Positions 15,320-63,912 of a stretch of DNA of 64,000 nucleotides are shown in pieces. The notes under the pieces are model-generated. The model ran no database searches, was not told the origin of the DNA, and saw only the letters and a program-made list of their open reading frames with translations. The stretch's first letter is position 1, and the number at the start of each line of letters is the position of its first letter. Source of the stretch: Heteronotia binoei (lineage: Eukaryota); NCBI RefSeq assembly GCF_032191835.1, contig NC_083237.1:38254001-38318000 (forward strand), written 5' to 3'. A program made the position numbers and the translations under genes.

Positions 15320-15727
15320 TTGCCCCCCCAGTCGGAATGAAGAGGCAGACACAATGTGTTGGGTATAAAAACTGGGCTGCTTTATTGAAAGAACTTGTCA
15401 CACCTATAACTGGCAGGGATTGGGCCTAGAAGGACAAGCCCTAGGGTCACCCCCTGACCCCGCCTTGTCCTGAAGGGTGAGCAACCCTGCCCCCAGCACA
15501 AGCCCACCGTATTCGGGTTGTTGCTGAGCGGCCAGGCCCCAAGCCATTCTCCACCTGGGCTAGCATCAATCCCCCATGGAAAGATCCGCCCAGGTGAGGC
15601 TTTTCCGTGAACTGCATTCCCCGCACTGAGCCGTGTAGCCCATCTGCAGTTCATACAAACCATCCGCACCCCTGGTGCTAGGCCATAGGTGCTCCCCTGA
15701 AAACACTGGCCAAAACATCCTCCAGCC
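15320..15727 (-). repeat. Ngaro terminal repeat B2 (about 405 bp), contains the poly(A) signal
   Basis: Direct repeat of 16086-16491; AATAAA on the minus strand (plus strand tttatt near 15382). Confidence 0.92.
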
Positions 15728-15895
15728 TGTGACCGAACAAATCATACTAACAAACCCTAACACTACAAGGCAGTACAAGGTAGGCGAAAAACAACTCCAC
15801 AAGGGCCAATTCTGTGAAGATGAAAAAATTTCTACCTGGCCCCTTATAAGGCGACCGGTTGAAACCTGTACTGCCAAAAGGGGAGGGCAGGCGGG

Positions 15896-16085
15896 CAGAG
15901 AGCCCGAAACAACTGCGTAGCTCTGGGCGGGGCTGGGGCTTATATAGCCCCGACGCCCGCCCAGAAAAAGCACCCGGATGCGCCGGGGCTGTCACTTTTC
16001 TGCTCCCTCCTTCCGAGGGGGCAAAGATGGCCCCCTGCCTAAACGACGGCGATGCCGTCTCGGCTGGGAAGGGGCCGGACCTTGC
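15896..16085 (-). repeat. Ngaro repeat A2 (about 188 bp)
   Basis: Direct repeat of 21802-21989, about 14 substitutions counted by eye, many at CpG. Confidence 0.92.
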
Positions 16086-16491
16086 CGCCCCAGTCGGAAT
16101 GAAGAGGCAGATACAATGTGTTGGGTATAAAAACCGGGCCGCTTTATTGAAAGAACTTGTCTAACCTATAACTGGCAGGGATGGGGCCTAGAAGGACAAG
16201 CCCTGGGGTCATCCCCTGACCCTGTCTTGTCCTGAAGGGCGAGCAACCCTGCCCCCAGCACAAGCCCGCCATATTTGGGTTGTTGCTGAGCGGCCAGACA
16301 CCAAGCCATTCTCCACCTGGGCTAGCATCAATCCCCCATGGAAAGATCCGCCCAGGTGAGGCTTTTCCGTGATCTGCATTCCCCGCACTGAGCCGTGTAG
16401 CCCATCTGCGGTTCATCCAGACCACCTGCACCCCTGGTGCTAGGCCATAGGTGCTCCCCTGAAAACACTGTGGCCAAAACATCCTCCAGCC
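16086..16491 (-). repeat. Ngaro repeat B1
   Basis: Direct repeat of 15320-15727; abuts A2. Confidence 0.92.
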
Positions 16492-16520
16492 ACCGCCAAC
16501 GCTAAGCCTCTGCTTAGGCA

Positions 16521-17116
16521 TTAGCACCCCAACGGACGGCCCAGAGCCGACTGCAATTCCTGCTGAATCTCCTTTAGAAAGGCCCAGTTGCCCAACTCCG
16601 AAAGATGGACCCCATCCGGCCGATACAGATCGGCATCTTCGACCCGTATGGCCGGATGAGGGAGAAAAAGCCCTAAGCCATTTTCCATGGCTTTCTGCAG
16701 GGCCCTGTTGATCTTGCGTCTAGCGCACTCTATCCCACCAGGTGAAAGGGCGAACCTCCAAATCCTGCGTGGCAATATTGCGGACCATACCAGGACCACA
16801 CCTGGCCGTCTTCGCTTAATTTCCTGGAGATCGGCCAGTGCCTGCAGCGAGAGGGCTTTCCCTTGCATCAATCCTAAGTCATTCCCGCCCAAGTGAATGA
16901 CCAATATGTGCGGAGGAGGTGCCGTCCTCTCTCTGAATAACAATGGCATAATACCCGGCCTGCGGAGGCCACGGCGACCCAGCCACTCCACCACAGCACA
17001 CTCGCTGAGGCCCAGCTGGGTGCCCACTGGAGACCGCCTGGCTTGATGGGCCGCCCAGAACACCATGCTGTGCCCGCAGATGAGAATACGACGCCTCTCA
17101 CTATGAGCCACAGCAC
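16521..17116 (-). CDS. Ngaro SGNH/GDSL-type hydrolase exon with no ATG of its own
   Basis: ICGHS (block I Ser), GRRG (block II), HLGGND (block III) and DGVH (block V) are all present; the ORF track starts it at a GTG. Confidence 0.88.
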
Positions 17117-17145
17117 CTGAAAAAACAGAAAATAGTCAAAAACAG
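17117..17145 (-). promoter_or_regulatory. Predicted 3' splice site upstream of the SGNH ORF
   Basis: Minus strand ...tttttgactattttctgttttttcag|GTGCTGTG: branch-like tgac, polypyrimidine tract and CAG. Confidence 0.75.
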
Positions 17146-17189
17146 ATAATAGCAATGGGCAATAAAACAGTCGCCTCCAAACCTACCCT

Positions 17190-18229
17190 CTAGGTGACCA
17201 ACAGGCGCACGTAGGTTTTAAAAGCTGCAGACCACCACTGGCCAATATGCTGGATAGTGGAGGGAGTGTAACCCATCATAGCAGCTGTGGAAGCGGCCCC
17301 AATCCGGAATGAATGCGTTCTGAACTTGACGCCTGGCTCGTCATGGCCCAAAACTGATATTTGGTAAGAGGGGAGCCCTCGTAATGCCTAAAAAAGGGGC
17401 CTTCGTCCTCACCCCTAAGGCGTGTGTAATGTTCAATGGCCAGAACCGGGCACAACTCGGGCAAAACACACTGCCCAATTGTGATGCTTGACCCCCTCTG
17501 TCGTTGATCAGTTTTGGACCGCCGGACCGTCAAAATAACCTGCTTCTGCCCAATTTTGACATCCCTGGCCTGAAGTGCCCATCCCGAAGTGTCAGTCTTA
17601 GATTGCACCACCACCTCACTAATGCATAACGTGCCAAAAAAGGCCATCAAGGAGGCTGCATGAAACAGAGCGGCCTCGAAAGGGGAAGAACATATACCCG
17701 GCCAAATCCCAAACAGCCCTTTAAGTACTGAAGGGGATATGGGTTGCCGGGCATCCACCCGCGGACCACACTTTCTGGCCCAACCTTCCAACATCTTCCG
17801 GACCCTGAAATCATCCGTATTCTCTGGGAACCCCGGAGCTTTGGTGATAAAGGCCAACGCCGCCAGTTGACCCCTAATTGTCTTCAGCCCCAAACCTCTC
17901 TCTTTCTGGTAAACACAGAACTGCATGATATGCGCCGTCGAAACCGGCCAACTATCGTGCAGTCCAGCAGTGCTCCTAAAAGCCCGGAACTGGGAAGCCG
18001 CCCTGTCATATGCCCTATTGGTACTGGGTGCCAAAGCTAGGCGAATGGCCCGACCGGCCTCTGCTTCCCAAGCTGCCAGAGGTCCAGAGGCATTCGGGTT
18101 GGCCACGGGTCCGCTTCTGAGGCAAGTTGACGGAAACGCTCCATCTGTTGACGAGACAGAGCGTCCGCCACCCTGTTGCACACTCCAGGTACATGCCTCG
18201 CCAGGAATAGAATATTCAACCGGAGGCAA
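17190..18229 (-). pseudogene. Ngaro tyrosine recombinase (frameshifted)
   Basis: VRRSKTDQ and LTKYQF; after a frameshift THSFRIGAASTAA...FKTYVR to TAG at 17190. The first catalytic Arg is replaced (FFGTLCISE versus FFGALRIS in the second element). Confidence 0.92.
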
Positions 18230-19877
18230 TGAAGTGTAAATGACCTTACCAAGTTCATCACAGATTTTGAGGACAAGGAGTTGATAACATGTACTACTGC
18301 CATGTTATCGCACCAGAAAATCATGGAATCTGGGCAAGCTGCTCAGCCCAGAGCCAAACGGCTACTAGAATAGGAAAAAATTCTAAAAAGGTAAGATCCC
18401 TACAGAGCCCATTGTCCAACCATTCTGCAGGCCACTGCTCGGCACACCAGCGGCCCCGAAAGTACACCCCGAAACCATTAGATCCGGCAGTGTCCGAGGA
18501 GATCTGAAGCTCGGCTTCAATCTTCAAATCTTCCCACCAAAAGGAAACACCGTTAAATGATTCCAAAAACTCCTCCCAGACCTCCAGGTCCGCCCGCATA
18601 CCGGCAGTCACTCGGACCCGATGGAGAGGGAGCCGCAACTGCTTCATAGCGTCACAGAGATGCCTCAAAAAGGCCCTACCGGGTGCCACCACTTTGCATG
18701 CAAAGTTGAGGTGGCCCACCACCTGCTGCAGTTCGAGCAGCAAAACCTTCCGCTGTTTCCTCAGCGCAGCTAACCGAATCTTAAGATCCGCAACCTTATT
18801 CTCAGGGAGCCGTGAAGCCTGCTGGACGGTGTCCAGCTCAATGCCTAAGAACGTAAGCACAGTACTGGGCCCCTTGGTCTTCTCATGCGCCAAAGGTACT
18901 CCGAGCTTGAGGGCTAACTCCTGAAAGGACTGTAACAACCTGCCGCATTGCCCCGAGCCCGCTGGACCCACAAAAATGTAGTCGTCCAGGTAATGCGCAG
19001 TATCGCTAAGCCCGGACCTGTCCCTTAACGCCCATTCCACAAAAGAGCTAAAGCGCTCGAATGCGGCGCAGGATACCGAACAACCCATCGGTAGGGCACG
19101 GTCCATATAAAATTTACCTTCAAAACAAAACCCCAGAAGCTCAAAATCATCCGGGTGAACTGGCAAGAGGCGAAATGCCAACTTAATGTCGCATTTCGCC
19201 ATCTCGGCCCCGACGCCGCAACCCCTAACTACCTTGACCGCCTGGTCAAAGGAAGTGTACCATACCGAACATAATTTGTCTGGTATAGCGTCGTTCACCG
19301 ATGCCCCTTTTGGGTAAGACAGATGATGAATAAGGTGATATTCCCCGGGCGCCTTCTTGGGGACCACCTCCAAGGGGGATACACGCAATACGGGTACAGG
19401 AGGGGCATCCAAGGGTCCCAAGACCCGATCCTCCTGGCACTCTTTGGCTATCTTAGCCCTAACCACGTGCTCAAGGCCTGCCACCGAACGAAGATTAGAA
19501 GCCAAACAAGGGGCCCTAGGACCCTGGTAAGGGATCCGAAACCCAAGAGAAAATCCATTCCACAAATACTCGCCGTCAGCTTTACGCGGGTACTTGCTCA
19601 GTAAACTACTGAGCACCCTCAGACGAATGGGGCTGGGCCCCTTTTCCAGGGGGCTGCTGATTGCCTCTGCCGCCGGGGCACTTACCCCCGGCCCTTGGCT
19701 TTGACCGACTACAAGCAGAGAGGGCGTGAGCCCCGCCACAGAGTGGGCACTCATGCTTGAATTTGCAGGGTTTTCTGGGGCACACGCCCTTCGATGCAAA
19801 CTCCCAGCATAACAGCCGGGCTTGAACCACCTGGCCCGCCATAACGTGGGCCCCTGCAGAAAGCTGCTGTTTGTCAA
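18037..19877 (-). pseudogene. Ngaro reverse transcriptase-RNase H (one frameshift near 18321)
   Basis: KCDIKLAFRLLP, LPMGCSVS, HYLDDY, TFLGIELDT; RNase H SDTAGSNGFG, LEFFPI, WCDNMAVV and NRVADALSR. Confidence 0.95.
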
Positions 19878-21141
19878 CTAAATGTCCGCTATCGGACCTG
19901 TCCCCTGAATTTGGCTTTGCCGGGGACATCAACTGCAGCCAAAGCTGCTGGTTGATCTGGTCCCATGGCAACCCCGGGTTAACGGTGGCCCTCATGTGAA
20001 AGGCCTCGTCGTATTGCAGCCAAGCTGTGCCGACGAAATCCGAAATCTGTGCCGATGAAATCGCGAGCCGGCTGCGCCCTTGCGATAACGCCTGTGTATA
20101 TCAGGAAACCGGGCAGCCAATTAGCCCAGGTCCGATCCACTTTCCTGCGCTTCAACTTCTCCTTTTCTTTGTCGTCACGTTCCTCCTTGTCCTTTTTCTC
20201 TAACTCTCTGAAGAGGAGGCTGAAAACATCTACGTATTCTCCACGTAGTATCTTATCCCGCGTGGCTGCCGTTAGATGGTCCCCCAACGTGGCCGCCGTT
20301 AAATGGTCCCCCAACGGCAACGCTGTTTTGCCATATGGGAGCATATGAAACGGGATGCTCGCATATGGATTTGGTGGGTAAAACCAAATACCCCTCTGAA
20401 AATTCGGCCACGCCCCCTGCATCTGCGCGTATTGCTGCCTGCCCCAGGGTAACATGCTGGGAGGGGCCTGCACTGTAGAACCCACCTGTGATGCGGCCAG
20501 GTTGGCCGGTAGGCCAGCGGTCATTAGACCTGGGCTGCCCACTACAAAACCTTGGGGGGCTGCTCCCTGATAGCCCCAAGCCCAAGACAGACACATACCC
20601 CCTTGATCGGCAGATGGTCCACCCTGTCCAAAAACCCACGGTGCTCCCGCTGCTGCAGTAGGGGGGGGGGCGGTAAGTGTGTAGGACCCCAGGGCCACAC
20701 CTGCAGCTACAGAAGGGGAGGCTTACCAACATTCCCAGGGAACGCAACTGCGCCTGCTGGCGGCTGCTGCACGACCTCTTCCGACGCCCCATTGCCATAC
20801 AGCTCTTCTGACGGGCCCTCGTCTGGGTCATCCTCTTGGTCTGGTTCTTGATGTGGTTCAAGCCAAGGCGCTCCACCCTGCAAAGCAGACAGACGAGCCA
20901 GTACTTATTTCTCAAAGGTCAGGCGTGTGGAGCGTCCCGTCACACGGCGACACCCTTCCCAAATGGGAGCTCCCGTAGCGGCTTTCTGTTGTTCCAGGGT
21001 GTCCAACTGGCCTATAATGGCCTGTCTCACTTGGGCCTCTTGCCCTGGGTCCTCAACGGGGCCATGCTGCTGTCCCCATCCCCAAGGGGGTCGGGCAGGT
21101 TGCTTGCCCTTAGATTTACCCTGCCCTTTTTTTGGCACCAT
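19606..21141 (-). pseudogene. Ngaro gag-like ORF1 (stops and frameshifts)
   Basis: MVPKKGQGKSKGK start; LGDHL...KILRGEYVDVFSLL; C-terminal Cys/His finger CWEFASKGVCPRKPCKFKHECPLCGGAHALSAC; aligns with gag at 58807-60320. Confidence 0.88.
20721..20729 (-). promoter_or_regulatory. Predicted 5' splice donor in gag (phase 1)
   Basis: Minus strand TTG|GTAAGC; the exon ends at 20727, 415 nt from the gag ATG at 21141. Confidence 0.7.
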
Positions 21142-21801
21142 ACTGATGTCCTACTAGCACACCCAGGCACAGCCACTACCAACCCCCCTCCAGTAAACCT
21201 TCCCAACAGGCCCAAAATTACCACCGTTACACTCCTCCCACGTGGTGAGTGGGGAGGGGGGGCAAGGGAAGCTGATACTGAATAAAGCAGAAGGCAACAA
21301 TGGGGGGGGGTGGCAACAGGCAGAAGCCAGGCACACACAGCCCCCTAAACACCCAACTGTAACACCCAAGCCAGGGCTCCACCCAGGATATGGTGGGGGG
21401 GGGGAGTTGAGGAGAGCAATGTGAATACAACGTTCACCAATGCCCCTTCCCTGGCCTGCTAAAACTATGGGCTGACGGAGCACTTTTCCAAACTTCTCAT
21501 CCTGGGGGGGGGGGAATGTGATACCCAGTCAGAGCACCCCACACAAACCCTTTCCCCAAAATACTATCCACCCCCTTGCTTCCCAAAGGAAAAAACCGGG
21601 AACCACCGGAGTCAGCCGCCGCTTGCACCTCAAGCCCCGCTCGCGCCCAAAGCTGGGAAACGCCAGAAAAAGCCACCGCTCGTGCCTGCCACCCACCGTC
21701 CGCACAGCATGCAGTCGTTCGCACCCAAAGCCGCCGCTCCAGTAAGTCCCATGATGCTCCCAGGCCTTCCTCCTCGCAGTTCCCCACACGTGGCTCTCCC
21801 T

Positions 21802-21989
21802 CAGAGAGCCCGAAACAACTGCGTAGCTCTAGGCGGGGCCGGGGCTTATATAGCCCTGACGCCCACCCAGAAAAAGCACTCAGATGTGCCGGGTCTGTCA
21901 CTCTTCTGCTCCCTCTTTCCGAGGGGGCAAAGACGGCCCCCAGCCTAAACGACGGCGATGCCGTCTCGGCTGGGAAGGGACCGGACCTT
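21802..21989 (-). repeat. Ngaro 5' repeat A1 with TATA-like motif and GC box
   Basis: Minus strand gggctatataagccccggccccgcc; repeated at 15896-16085 and homologous to 58123-58310. Confidence 0.9.
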
Positions 21990-22439
21990 CCCTTGGATGA
22001 AATCACAAGGGTGGGGGAGAACCTATTTGGGCTCAGCGTGGGACAGTTGATCAATCAGGTAGGGGCTGGCTTTGTTCCTGTTTAAAATAAAGAATGGCTT
22101 ACTCTTTATAAGAAATTTATAAATATTTGTCTTCATGAGGTCTCATTGCTGCATTGCTTGCATTTTGAGAGCTTTATGCAAACTATAGAATTGAAGGTTT
22201 GGAACCAAATAAAATAAATGTTTGGCTTGCTCCATATAGAAAAGTGGGTGGTTCCTTCATGAAGCTTTAGTGCTTGTATCCATGGAGAGTGTTTTGGCCA
22301 GCAATGAAATGGAAGGCGTTGAACATGCTTTTTAAAAAAGATACTCCTTCATTACATACAGCTTAACAAGAAGACATTAAGATTACTGATGAAGTGGCAA
22401 AACGAAACATGTCTATTATAAATAGTTATGCTGTAGTAT

Positions 22440-58454: not shown

Positions 58455-59236
58455 GTTTTTTTCGGCGCTGTCGGCAGCCGGGATGGGTGCCTCGGGGGGC
58501 AAACGGAGTGGTGGCAGAAGGCAGCAATCAGTGGGTGTGGCCAGGCCAGGTGTCTCCAGCTGGGGCAGAGCCACAGAGGACCCAAAGTAATGCGGGGAAG
58601 GCCAAGAGGGGGCGGTTTTATTTGGGGCAGTCTGCCTGGCGGGAGTCAGTTGGGAGTAGAGAGGACAGCCTTAGCTAGGTGCTTGTATCTTTGGGCAGGG
58701 AGTATCCTGGCTTGATTTATAAGAGCATTGAACACACATCCCCCAGGTGGTACAAAGAATAAATAAATACATAAAATGGTGGATAGGACAGCGGTGGGGG
58801 TTACACATGGGGCCCAAGAAGGGAGAGGGCCCTTCCAAGGGTAAGCAACCAGCCAAGCCCCCCAGGAAGAGGAGTCAACCGGCCACACCCAGGAAGGTTG
58901 TTGGGGATGAGATCCAGATGCGGCAGGCCATTATCGACAAGCTAGGGGCCCTTGAGAGGGACAGGGGGTTGGCCAGTGCACCCTCATCATGGACAGGGCA
59001 CCATAGAGCCATGGGGTGGTCTGGCACGTTGACATTCAAGAGGGAGGTGCTGGCCCATCTTTCTGTGTTGCAGGAGGGAGAAGAGCAGATGGAAGGGTCT
59101 TCCCAGCAGAGTCAAGATGTGGTGCCAAGTGGGGGTGTGCTGCATAATGAGGACATTGAGAAGCAAGAAGAGGCAGAGTTGGAGCAGCCGGGGTCATCAA
59201 TGGCAGTGGCTGTGGAGGTGCCACCACCGCTGAAAG

Positions 59237-59245
59237 CAGGTAAGA
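59237..59245 (+). promoter_or_regulatory. Predicted 5' splice donor in gag (phase 1)
   Basis: CAG|GTAAGA; the exon ends at 59239, 433 nt from the gag ATG at 58807. Confidence 0.72.
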
Positions 59246-62200: not shown

Positions 62201-62794
62201 AAGTGTGTTGATCCAGTTTTGAGAGCACACTTTTACACACAGCAGCACTAATAGCCTTTTTCGGGGCCCTGAGAATTAGCAAGCTGGTAGTGCAATCCCG
62301 GCAGGACCAGTCCAATTGCGCTCTTCGTGCCAGGGATGTAAAATTTAATGGTGACCAGGTCATTTTGACAGTTAGACGATCCAAAACAGACCAAAAGAGC
62401 AAGGGCATGGTAGTTACACTGGGCCCCTGTGGAGAAGCGGAGTTGTGCCTGATTAAGGCCCTGCAACAGTAAGTGTCAATTAGAGGGCACACCGAGGGAC
62501 CACTATTTTGCCATAGCGACGGTTCTCCATTGACCAAATACCAATTTTGGGCGGTAACCACATGGGCATTAGATAAGCTGGGGCTAGAGGATGTCAAATT
62601 TGGCACCCACTCATTCAGGATTGGTGTGGCTTCCACAGCGGCAGCAATGGGCTACCCTGGTCCAGTAATTCGGAGGGTGGGTTGGTGACATTCCTCGGCC
62701 TTCTGGTCTTATGTGCGTCCCTTGCTCTCTGTGTGAGCAAGGAAAACGCAGAGTTAATTTAGTAATGGCCACGGTGGGCAAGTTACTGTTCTTG

Positions 62795-62818
62795 GTTTGA
62801 CTGTTTGTTTCCTTATAG
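62795..62818 (+). promoter_or_regulatory. Predicted 3' splice site upstream of the SGNH ORF
   Basis: tttgactgtttgtttccttatag|GTGCTGTT. Confidence 0.75.
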
Positions 62819-63912
62819 GTGCTGTTGCTCGCCATGAGAGGCTGAGGATCCTCATTTGTGGGCACAGCATGGTGTTGGGGCAAAGTGAATTGGGGCTCAG
62901 TGAATGGGCTGTGGTGGAGTGGCAGGGGCGCCAGGGTCTACAATGGCCAGGGCTCCTGCCACTATTGTTTCAGGGGGGGACTGGTCCTCCACCTCACATA
63001 CTGGTCATCCACCTTGGTGGGAATGACCTTGGGTTTATGAAAGGGAAGGCCCATTCCCTGCAGGTGGAGGCTGATCTCCAGGTCATCGTGCAGAGGTGGC
63101 CCGGCATCCTCCTAGTTTGGTCTGCAATCCTTCCTTGCAGAGTTTGGCATGCCACCTGGGACCTGGCAGGCATTGAGAGGGCCAGAAGGAAGGCAAACCA
63201 GGCCCTTCAGAAGGTGATGGAGGGGGGCCTGGATATTTTCCTTCCCCACCCGACCATCTGGGTTGAAATGGAGGAGCTCTATCGATCCAATGGAGTTCGC
63301 TTGTATGAACAGGTATGAATGAACTTTATTACAGTCATAGACCAATATAAAAACTATAACACATCATATAAAACCCTCCTAAAATACCTAAGATAGTATA
63401 AAATACCCTCCTAAAAAAACATACAATACAATAAAATACATAAACATTTCCCCACCTATACAATCCAAGAGAACTAAAATATAATTTAACCAATTTTAAA
63501 ATTCAAGTCAGTTCCAATTTATATAAATCCTTTAAATCAGAGTATATAAAAACATTTATAAACTAAAATTCCAAGAGATCATACAAGACATGCAGTTTCT
63601 TGTTTCTTAGTATGGAACTTCACAAGATAATGGCAAAATTTGGCTATCTGTCTAGAGATAGTTGGACTTGCATCCACCAATAGTTTCTCCAAACATGCCT
63701 CGTCCGCGTCTGCCATTGGTTTAACTACAAACGGGGAAACAAACCTATCCCTCTGTACTTGGTGGAAAGGGCATTTCCCTTTCCCTGTTCATTCATACCT
63801 GTTCATACCAATGGAGTTCGCTTGTAAGACTTGGGTAACTGGGCCTTTTTAAATGACCTATGGCATGGGCTTTGGGGAGCTCTGGGCCATCCGGTGGGCA
63901 CTAATGCATAAG
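62819..63912 (+). pseudogene. Ngaro SGNH hydrolase exon, damaged
   Basis: ICGHSMV and HLGGND; about 10-aa deletion after GHSMV; DGVH changed to NGVR; LINE insertion at 63304-63807; resumes with LGNWAFL. Confidence 0.85.
63304..63807 (-). mobile_element. 5'-truncated LINE (RTE-X-like C-terminus) with an inverted copy of its own tail at the 5' end
   Basis: Minus strand encodes KCPFHQVQRDRFVSP...LEKLLVDASPTISRQIAKFC and ends aataaagttcattcatacctgttcata; 17-bp TSD ccaatggagttcgcttg (63287-63303, 63808-63824). Confidence 0.8.

Follow-up and report, generated by a model that had tools for sequence, protein, structure and literature searches.

The window analysed here, 64,000 nucleotides (nt) of Heteronotia binoei (assembly GCF_032191835.1, contig NC_083237.1, forward-strand positions 38,254,001 to 38,318,000), carries on its minus strand, at 15320-21992, a decayed Ngaro-type tyrosine recombinase (YR) retrotransposon, so assigned by its repeats, the order of its open reading frames (ORFs) and its SGNH hydrolase ORF. 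Split direct repeats of the Ngaro-like form A1...B1 A2 B2 are present (A pair 93%, B pair 94% identical), split repeats being described for PAT-like elements too (PMC9210276), and the element reads A1, gag, reverse transcriptase (RT)/RNase H, recombinase, SGNH frame, B1, A2, B2. A relative has the first three ORFs intact, at 510, 638 and 359 amino acids (aa), and intact 510-aa Gag ORFs occur in relatives. The SGNH ORF follows the recombinase, where a methyltransferase could stand; no methyltransferase family was matched by the seven ORFs scanned. How is this last frame expressed? A first-pass annotation, made from the letters of the window, predicted a spliced mRNA that fuses the Gag N-terminus in frame to the esterase, and we are close to certain that this splice route is real.

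The junction in the window copy stands to the base as it was predicted: the ATG is at 21141, the donor follows 20727 after 415 nt in phase 1, and the 3610-nt intron ends at 17117 in a pyrimidine tract closing with TTTCAG. Exon 2 extends from 17116 to the stop at 16521 (596 nt), and 415 plus 596 is divisible by three, giving 336 codons. The decay stop TAA in exon 1 was recovered, and the exon-2 frame matches Pfam Lipase_GDSL_2 above the cut-off, in agreement with its annotation as a hydrolase. All features of a U2-type intron are present, namely GT donor, branch-like motif, pyrimidine tract, YAG and exact removal, and the TGA of the branch-point-like TGAC doubles as the stop that closes the esterase frame upstream. 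The annotation erred in describing the hydrolase ORF as having no ATG, for in-frame ATGs lie at 17066, 16949, 16868 and 16688. The first is directly 3' of the catalytic Ser codon of the GHS motif (17067-17069), and therefore no ATG of the frame yields the whole enzyme.

Genomic copies that lack the intron

Copies that precisely lack the segment equivalent to 17117-20726 had been suggested as a test of the splice, and two were found, in different subfamilies, both with an intact 336-aa ORF. A search of the same genome (G000) with the esterase exon recovered the first, L009 (G000:C2), and the L009 protein as query recovered the second, L102 (the same locus as L150; G000:C5), whose protein is 74% identical to that of L009. 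The L009 match starts at the acceptor: it aligns to window 16085-17117, resumes at 20725-21262, and encodes an uninterrupted protein. L150 has six unspliced, near-identical sisters (L131-L136, 97-99% in both exons). Compared with L132 and L133 over 3393 aligned nt, it differs by 19 mismatches; besides a few indels, each 1-4 nt long, the alignment has a single large gap of exactly 1323 nt that begins GTAAGC, ends TTTCAG and is homologous to the 3610-nt intron of the window copy.

In both copies the A repeat upstream of the TATA box is preserved, as is the complete B end, and the termini are those of unspliced copies; L150 retains the entire B1-A2-B2 array. Hallmarks of L1-type processed retrocopies are absent from both: there is no poly(A) and no flanking duplication (the longest word shared by the flanks is 4-5 nt). 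The exact GT-AG gap, together with Ngaro termini and no poly(A), therefore indicates that spliced RNA was made and re-integrated, and we infer that the enzymes of the element itself, rather than those of L1, carried out the copying and integration. Since the spliced RNA retains both terminal repeat sets, it would occasionally be reverse-transcribed and integrated by these enzymes.

No third intron-less copy was found among 40 candidates scored with L009 junction DNA, and none beyond L009 and L102 among the 118-120 scored per search, of about 17,000 candidates, with the L009 protein and two Eublepharis models; two is a lower bound. Locus L177 at first looked fused and was rejected since a normal acceptor is present. 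We also note that the L131 subfamily has a partial extra B repeat between A2 and B2 (L131:4247-4536), inherited by L150.

Conservation and transcription of the splice junction

Conservation of donor, acceptor and phase, also named beforehand as a test, was assessed in 79 copies, 77 of them fetched loci and the other two the window elements, and all three are kept over at least 12 lineages. The donor region, present in 65 copies, reads G·GTAAG in 54, G·GTAGG in 10 and G·TTAAG in one (the dot marks the exon end), so that G·GTA(A/G)G is found in 64 of 65, and the site is kept by 12 of 12 lineages at a 75% cut. Invariance is 0.85-1.0 at donor columns -1 to +5, compared with 0.35-0.92 in the flanks, and the donor Gly codon is GGT in 64 of 65 cases, compared with 238 of 839 other exon-1 Gly codons. 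Likewise, 76 of the 79 copies have a YAG acceptor, in phase 1 to the esterase in every case, and 78 have a branch-like T(A/G)A(C/T) within -35 to -13 of the acceptor. Exon 1 is 382, 400, 415, 421, 427 or 433 nt long and is in phase 1 in 48 of 62 copies. Finally, the pooled ratio of nonsynonymous to synonymous substitution rates (dN/dS) across 10 copies, whose pairs are not independent, is 0.20 for exon 1, 0.22 from the acceptor to the catalytic Ser (a stretch of only 16-18 codons) and 0.16 for the rest of the esterase, which shows that both exons are under purifying selection. Several non-autonomous families (L131-L138; L086, L092, L096; L146) have RT and recombinase deleted, with gag, both splice sites and the esterase kept. 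Some non-autonomous copies are less than 1% diverged, and thus the family moved recently.

RNA evidence comes from contigs of four runs, from two studies of diverged relatives, aligned to L131. A contig of run X4 passes directly from 1574 to 2898 of L131 and so leaves out 1323 nt with GT..AG ends, at a depth of 13.6; the proposed RNA check thus finds the junction at the predicted sites in one contig of one run of four. Runs X1-X3 have no such joint among the joints listed. Gene models share the fused architecture: among 120 listed homologues, 19 squamate models cover 85-100% of the L009 fusion (Eublepharis 8, Hemicordylus 4, Anolis 3, Elgaria 2, Rhineura 1, Pogona 1) and share with the L009 protein its basic start, helices, linker and esterase. 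Frog and newt models have different, low-complexity N-termini. Isoform pairs from Elgaria and Hemicordylus (P0034/P0024, P0037/P0028, P0040/P0043) vary in length, 391 versus 341-342 aa and 364 versus 347 aa, hinting at possible alternative donors deeper in gag.

The coordinates of both window elements are collected in Table 1, in which the exon-1 helices are assigned from the structure model of the intact copy L102. In the second element the esterase exon is split by an AT-rich insertion of about 500 bases (63307-63810), with a short duplicated stretch at the insertion ends. In the same element another GTAAG resembling a phase-1 donor stands at 58841 (+34 from the ATG), some 11 codons into gag; this early site recurs in L164, L168, L171 and L172, is missing in L175 and L176, and could yield a short basic peptide joined to the esterase.

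Table 1. Features of the two Ngaro-type elements, in window positions
Feature	Position	Strand	Remark
Split direct repeat A1, 5' terminus	21802-21992	-	93% to A2
TATA box inside A1	21846-21852	-	
Exon 1, coding part: Gag N-terminus (basic peptide, two helices, linker)	20727-21141	-	415 nt, phase 1
Premature TAA in exon 1, sign of decay	20905-20907	-	
5' splice donor GTAAGC, Gly-Lys in Gag frame	20721-20726	-	breakpoint of both intron-less copies
GT-AG intron: rest of Gag, RT/RNase H, recombinase	17117-20726	-	3610 nt
Gag remainder with C-terminal Cys/His finger, frameshifted	19606-20722	-	ORFs 19979-20722, 19606-20100
RT/RNase H, broken	18037-19877	-	RVT_1 E 4.9e-9 (above cut-off); weak RVT_3
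Tyrosine recombinase, broken near C-terminus	17190-18304	-	weak Phage_int_SAM_1, E 0.026
Recombinase stop TAG	17190-17192	-	
Branch-point-like TGAC, pyrimidine tract, AG acceptor	17117-17138	-	
Exon 2, SGNH esterase	16521-17116	-	GHS 17075, GRRG 16979, GGND 16889, DGVH 16616
Split direct repeat B1	16082-16491	-	94% to B2; AATAAA at 16143-16148
Split direct repeat A2	15896-16086	-	
Split direct repeat B2, 3' terminus	15320-15727	-	
Second, divergent Ngaro copy: exon 1 of 433 nt, phase 1	58807-59245	+	donor GTAAGA at 59240
Second copy: acceptor and decayed esterase exon	62790-63900	+	acceptor AG 62817-62818 (phase 1); one deletion, one insertion

The Gag-esterase fusion and its alternatives

What kind of protein would the spliced RNA encode? 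AlphaFold models the L102 protein with helices at residues 29-55 and 71-88 (predicted local distance difference test scores of about 67-78), a disordered stretch at 90-138 and a confident SGNH domain, which Foldseek matches at E 1e-7 to platelet-activating factor (PAF) acetylhydrolase and GDSL enzymes. SGNH blocks I, II, III and V are present in the window copy as GHS, GRRG, GGND and DGVH, and of 53 open esterase frames 45 have GHS, 50 GxND and 50 DGxH. The best sequence match in the PDB, weak (E 0.013) and the sole near-significant one, is the esterase of ZfL2-1 ORF1p (4c1b). A [RK]hxxhE motif closes each helix in 20 of 24 named homologues, with strict R in both in 16; RhxxhE is a trimerisation motif in L1 ORF1p (PMC5940361). 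A complex prediction with three copies of residues 22-95, in which the alignment was unused, scored 0.02 and is counted neither way.

Retroviral and gypsy env genes are expressed from a spliced subgenomic RNA, env usually taking only the leader or a short peptide, and the intron of the Ngaro element similarly removes pol. In the Ty1/Copia short gag system, too, alternative splicing of one transcript gives a second protein (PMC5580714), with the difference that Copia splicing truncates Gag, whereas the Ngaro splice fuses about 140 Gag residues to an enzyme, in a YR element. The closest element architecture is that of Xenopus DIRS-53_XT and DIRS-54_XT, with the same A1...B1 A2 B2 repeats and gag, RT/RNase H and YR followed by an SGNH ORF; there, however, the SGNH frame is handled as a fourth, overlapping ORF (PMC9210276), whereas the squamate element joins it to Gag as a second exon. 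An SGNH ORF in Ngaro elements is known, its function being described as unproven (PMC9210276, PMC6681497), and the main text of PMC9210276 never mentions splicing or introns. The protein most alike in build is ZfL2-1 ORF1p, in which a basic peptide, a helical region and a variable linker precede an SGNH domain that has the catalytic Ser and His. There a coiled coil accompanies a slow but active esterase with affinity for acidic phospholipids and liposomes (PMC3905857). ZfL2-1 ORF1p is, however, the single unspliced ORF1 of a non-LTR element, with a solved five-heptad antiparallel dimer, whereas the Ngaro protein is a spliced product beside full Gag, in a YR element, with two short model-predicted helices. 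The fusion is thus not itself an esterase-type ORF1p of long interspersed elements (LINEs), and the claim is of a similar build only; the text available from PMC3905857 has no mention of Ngaro or tyrosine recombinases. Our literature search found no description of this expression route, the founding Ngaro papers, Repbase and supplements lying outside its reach. Strategy and domains are known; on the strength of that search, the combination, and its occurrence in the YR element class, appear new.

In our reading the element splices a phase-1 donor some 130-145 codons into gag to a phase-1 acceptor that closely follows the recombinase stop; the spliced RNA is then likely translated into a protein of about 336 aa consisting of a basic N-terminal peptide, two short helices, a flexible linker and an SGNH esterase. 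The unspliced RNA would serve as genome and as the source of Gag, RT and recombinase, and the spliced RNA as the source of Gag(N)-esterase. Through the shared N-terminus, with its two RhxxhE-type motifs, the fusion may co-assemble with full-length Gag as a membrane-binding component, and would then present an esterase that binds lipid and hydrolyses slowly, the role put forward for ZfL2-1 ORF1p. That a fusion protein is made from the spliced RNA is very likely; that it acts as a membrane-binding or particle component, an analogy with ZfL2-1, has a somewhat less than even chance. As one explanation of all the observations, the combination of splice, fusion of about 336 aa and membrane-binding particle component is the one we strongly favour.

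Several observations weigh against this proposal. Because the 79 copies are related by descent and were chosen for their similarity to exon 2 or exon 1, their counts are not independent. Scored on a rough weight matrix, the window donor is only moderate, coming 9th among the element's 356 GT sites, and thus the site alone is not beyond chance; it becomes so by its conservation across copies and by the intron-less copies. Exon 1 is off phase 1 in 14 of 62 copies, which we take as decay because the shift also disrupts Gag. The RNA evidence is thin: the X4 contig is a single one, with 30 nt on its short side, and 15 of 36 joints are among those listed; the contigs carry no strand information, and DNA of an intron-less genomic copy could also produce the joint. 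The squamate models are automatic NCBI predictions. In the subfamily to which the window copy belongs, the RhxxhE motifs are degenerate (QLDTLE, RLSALQ). Finally, the non-autonomous copies L140-L142, L145, L148 and L149 have lost the middle of the esterase while keeping gag and both splice sites, and still spread, so that an intact esterase is not required in cis.

Three alternatives dispense with the splice. The esterase might be translated alone, from an ATG near the acceptor or an internal promoter, with splicing incidental. An in-frame ATG upstream of the acceptor, which the annotation had named as evidence contrary to the splice, does occur in 16 of 79 copies, including six young sisters at -28, and the Xenopus study treats the esterase as an ORF of its own (PMC9210276); the expected absence of such an ATG therefore holds in 63 copies and fails in the remainder, in which its position is not conserved, varying from -19 to -154. 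A stop often lies 22 nt upstream, the first conserved ATG is 3' of the catalytic Ser, yet the codons ahead of it are under purifying selection, and translation of the esterase alone leaves the invariant donor and the intron-less copies unexplained. We regard this alternative as very unlikely. Read-through or frameshifting from the recombinase, which the annotation had also raised, would suit an esterase frame that opens 47-83 nt behind the recombinase stop and coincides with the recombinase frame in 20 of 56 scorable copies (23 were not scorable). However, the other two offsets account for 25 and 11, all three values occur even in young copies whose ORFs are intact, and stops lie in between. 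A conserved read-through or frameshift is therefore excluded and this route largely refuted, with hardly any probability left to it. Lastly, the intron-less copies might be deletions that arose in DNA or by template switching at a GGT microhomology of three bases, with no part played by the spliceosome: three bases fit either side of the joint, and internal deletions are common in the family. Yet some 23,900 three-base microhomology pairs join Gag to the downstream region in L132, which makes two chance deletions at one and the same pair, in two subfamilies and both in frame, implausible; ordinary deletions among the fetched copies have other breakpoints, and the joint sites carry conserved branch-like, pyrimidine and donor features. 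This origin is highly improbable.

A fourth alternative accepts the splice and reinterprets the product, as a truncated Gag that damps assembly or as a soluble deacetylase acting on host substrates. The fusion has the Gag N-terminus without the Cys/His finger, independent deletion families keep Gag and both splice sites, Ty1 p22 offers a precedent for a truncated Gag that damps assembly, and deacetylation and depalmitoylation are given as alternative esterase roles (PMC3905857). On the other hand, 45-50 of 53 open frames retain the catalytic motifs, which exceeds the need of a mere dominant-negative, and the architecture parallels liposome-binding esterase ORF1 proteins. Such a regulator is a serious contender, though in our judgement less likely than not.

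Esterase exons in the host genes TSG101 and DUSP12

The homologue search with the L009 protein also turned up isoforms of TSG101 in which the UEV domain is followed by a domain of the esterase family. In a second search, 21 named TSG101 entries were among 28 matches, 72-100% identical to the wallaby domain; holders of the exon are echidna, wallaby, manatee, turtles, crocodile, lizards and snakes, and across the monotreme, marsupial, manatee, turtle, crocodile and squamate forms the domain is 72-85% identical. Bird, amphibian, fish, rodent and primate TSG101 were not among the 695 candidates, which does not prove their absence. In the Heteronotia genome the exon (G000:C21:152569810-152570397; L151, L178, L179; proteins P0084, P0088, P0095, P0109, P0121, P0123) is an alternative last exon with a phase-1 acceptor of its own; the TSG101 donor ahead of it is in phase 1, and the ordinary next exon comes about 9 kb further on. 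An intron-less TSG101 copy (L152, L153; G000:C21:191992013-191992677), with one stop, resembles a processed pseudogene and is 81-82% identical to the Anolis protein. The closest relatives of the domain outside TSG101 are the proteins P0134 (from a fish, 357 aa), P0133 and P0135, at 41-42%, with DGVH intact; they may be Ngaro products or belong to a host gene.

The second host gene is DUSP12, where a decayed Ngaro relic (G000:C4:17581323-17583400; L191, L197; proteins P0018, P0019) retains part of Gag exon 1, the GTAAGC donor and the acceptor. DUSP12 gene models of two gecko genera run through the donor and acceptor of the relic, and an NCBI model uses both, which speaks for the splice route. 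The catalytic His is lost in the TSG101 and DUSP12 domains, and the DUSP12 catalytic motifs are degenerate. In an unrooted esterase tree (61 rows, no outgroup, the placement of G000_L172 and Xen56 being meaningless), nine TSG101 domains form one clade (100/98) adjoining fish-type sequences, and the two DUSP12 domains fall among gecko Ngaro esterases (100/93). Their different places in the tree mark the two as separate capture events. The evidence for a Ngaro origin is direct for the DUSP12 exon; for the TSG101 exon the same origin is inferred. The LAP2alpha exons of TMPO and ZNF451 are likewise domains of YR retrotransposons used as alternative terminal host exons, with the difference that they derive from the gag ORF of DIRS1-like elements (PMC4495291), whereas the TSG101 and DUSP12 exons encode an esterase without its catalytic His. 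The available text of PMC4495291 mentions neither TSG101 nor a hydrolase, and a TSG101 esterase exon was not described in the results found by our literature search.

Tentatively, and with rather more doubt than confidence, these observations can be joined: vertebrate Ngaro elements may use alternative splicing to produce a LINE-ORF1-like coiled-coil-plus-esterase protein for a membrane-binding or membrane-remodelling Gag particle, and hosts may have captured its exon at least twice, including in TSG101 before the amniote radiation. If this is true, the exon in TSG101, a component of ESCRT-I (endosomal sorting complex required for transport I), couples a late-domain-binding UEV to a catalytically dead, transposon-derived lipid-binding domain. 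The analysis in any case reveals an apparently undescribed, strongly conserved TSG101 isoform of amniotes, and it identifies a class of squamate gene models labelled "uncharacterized" as transposon transcripts.

For the Ngaro elements themselves, reading the hydrolase ORF as the second exon of a Gag fusion names a real protein to express and assay, of which natural intact copies exist. The fusion would be an instance of regulated splicing in a tyrosine recombinase retrotransposon, of which our literature search found none. It would also show convergence on the design of the LINE esterase ORF1 proteins, and so bears on why retroelements carry lipid esterases.

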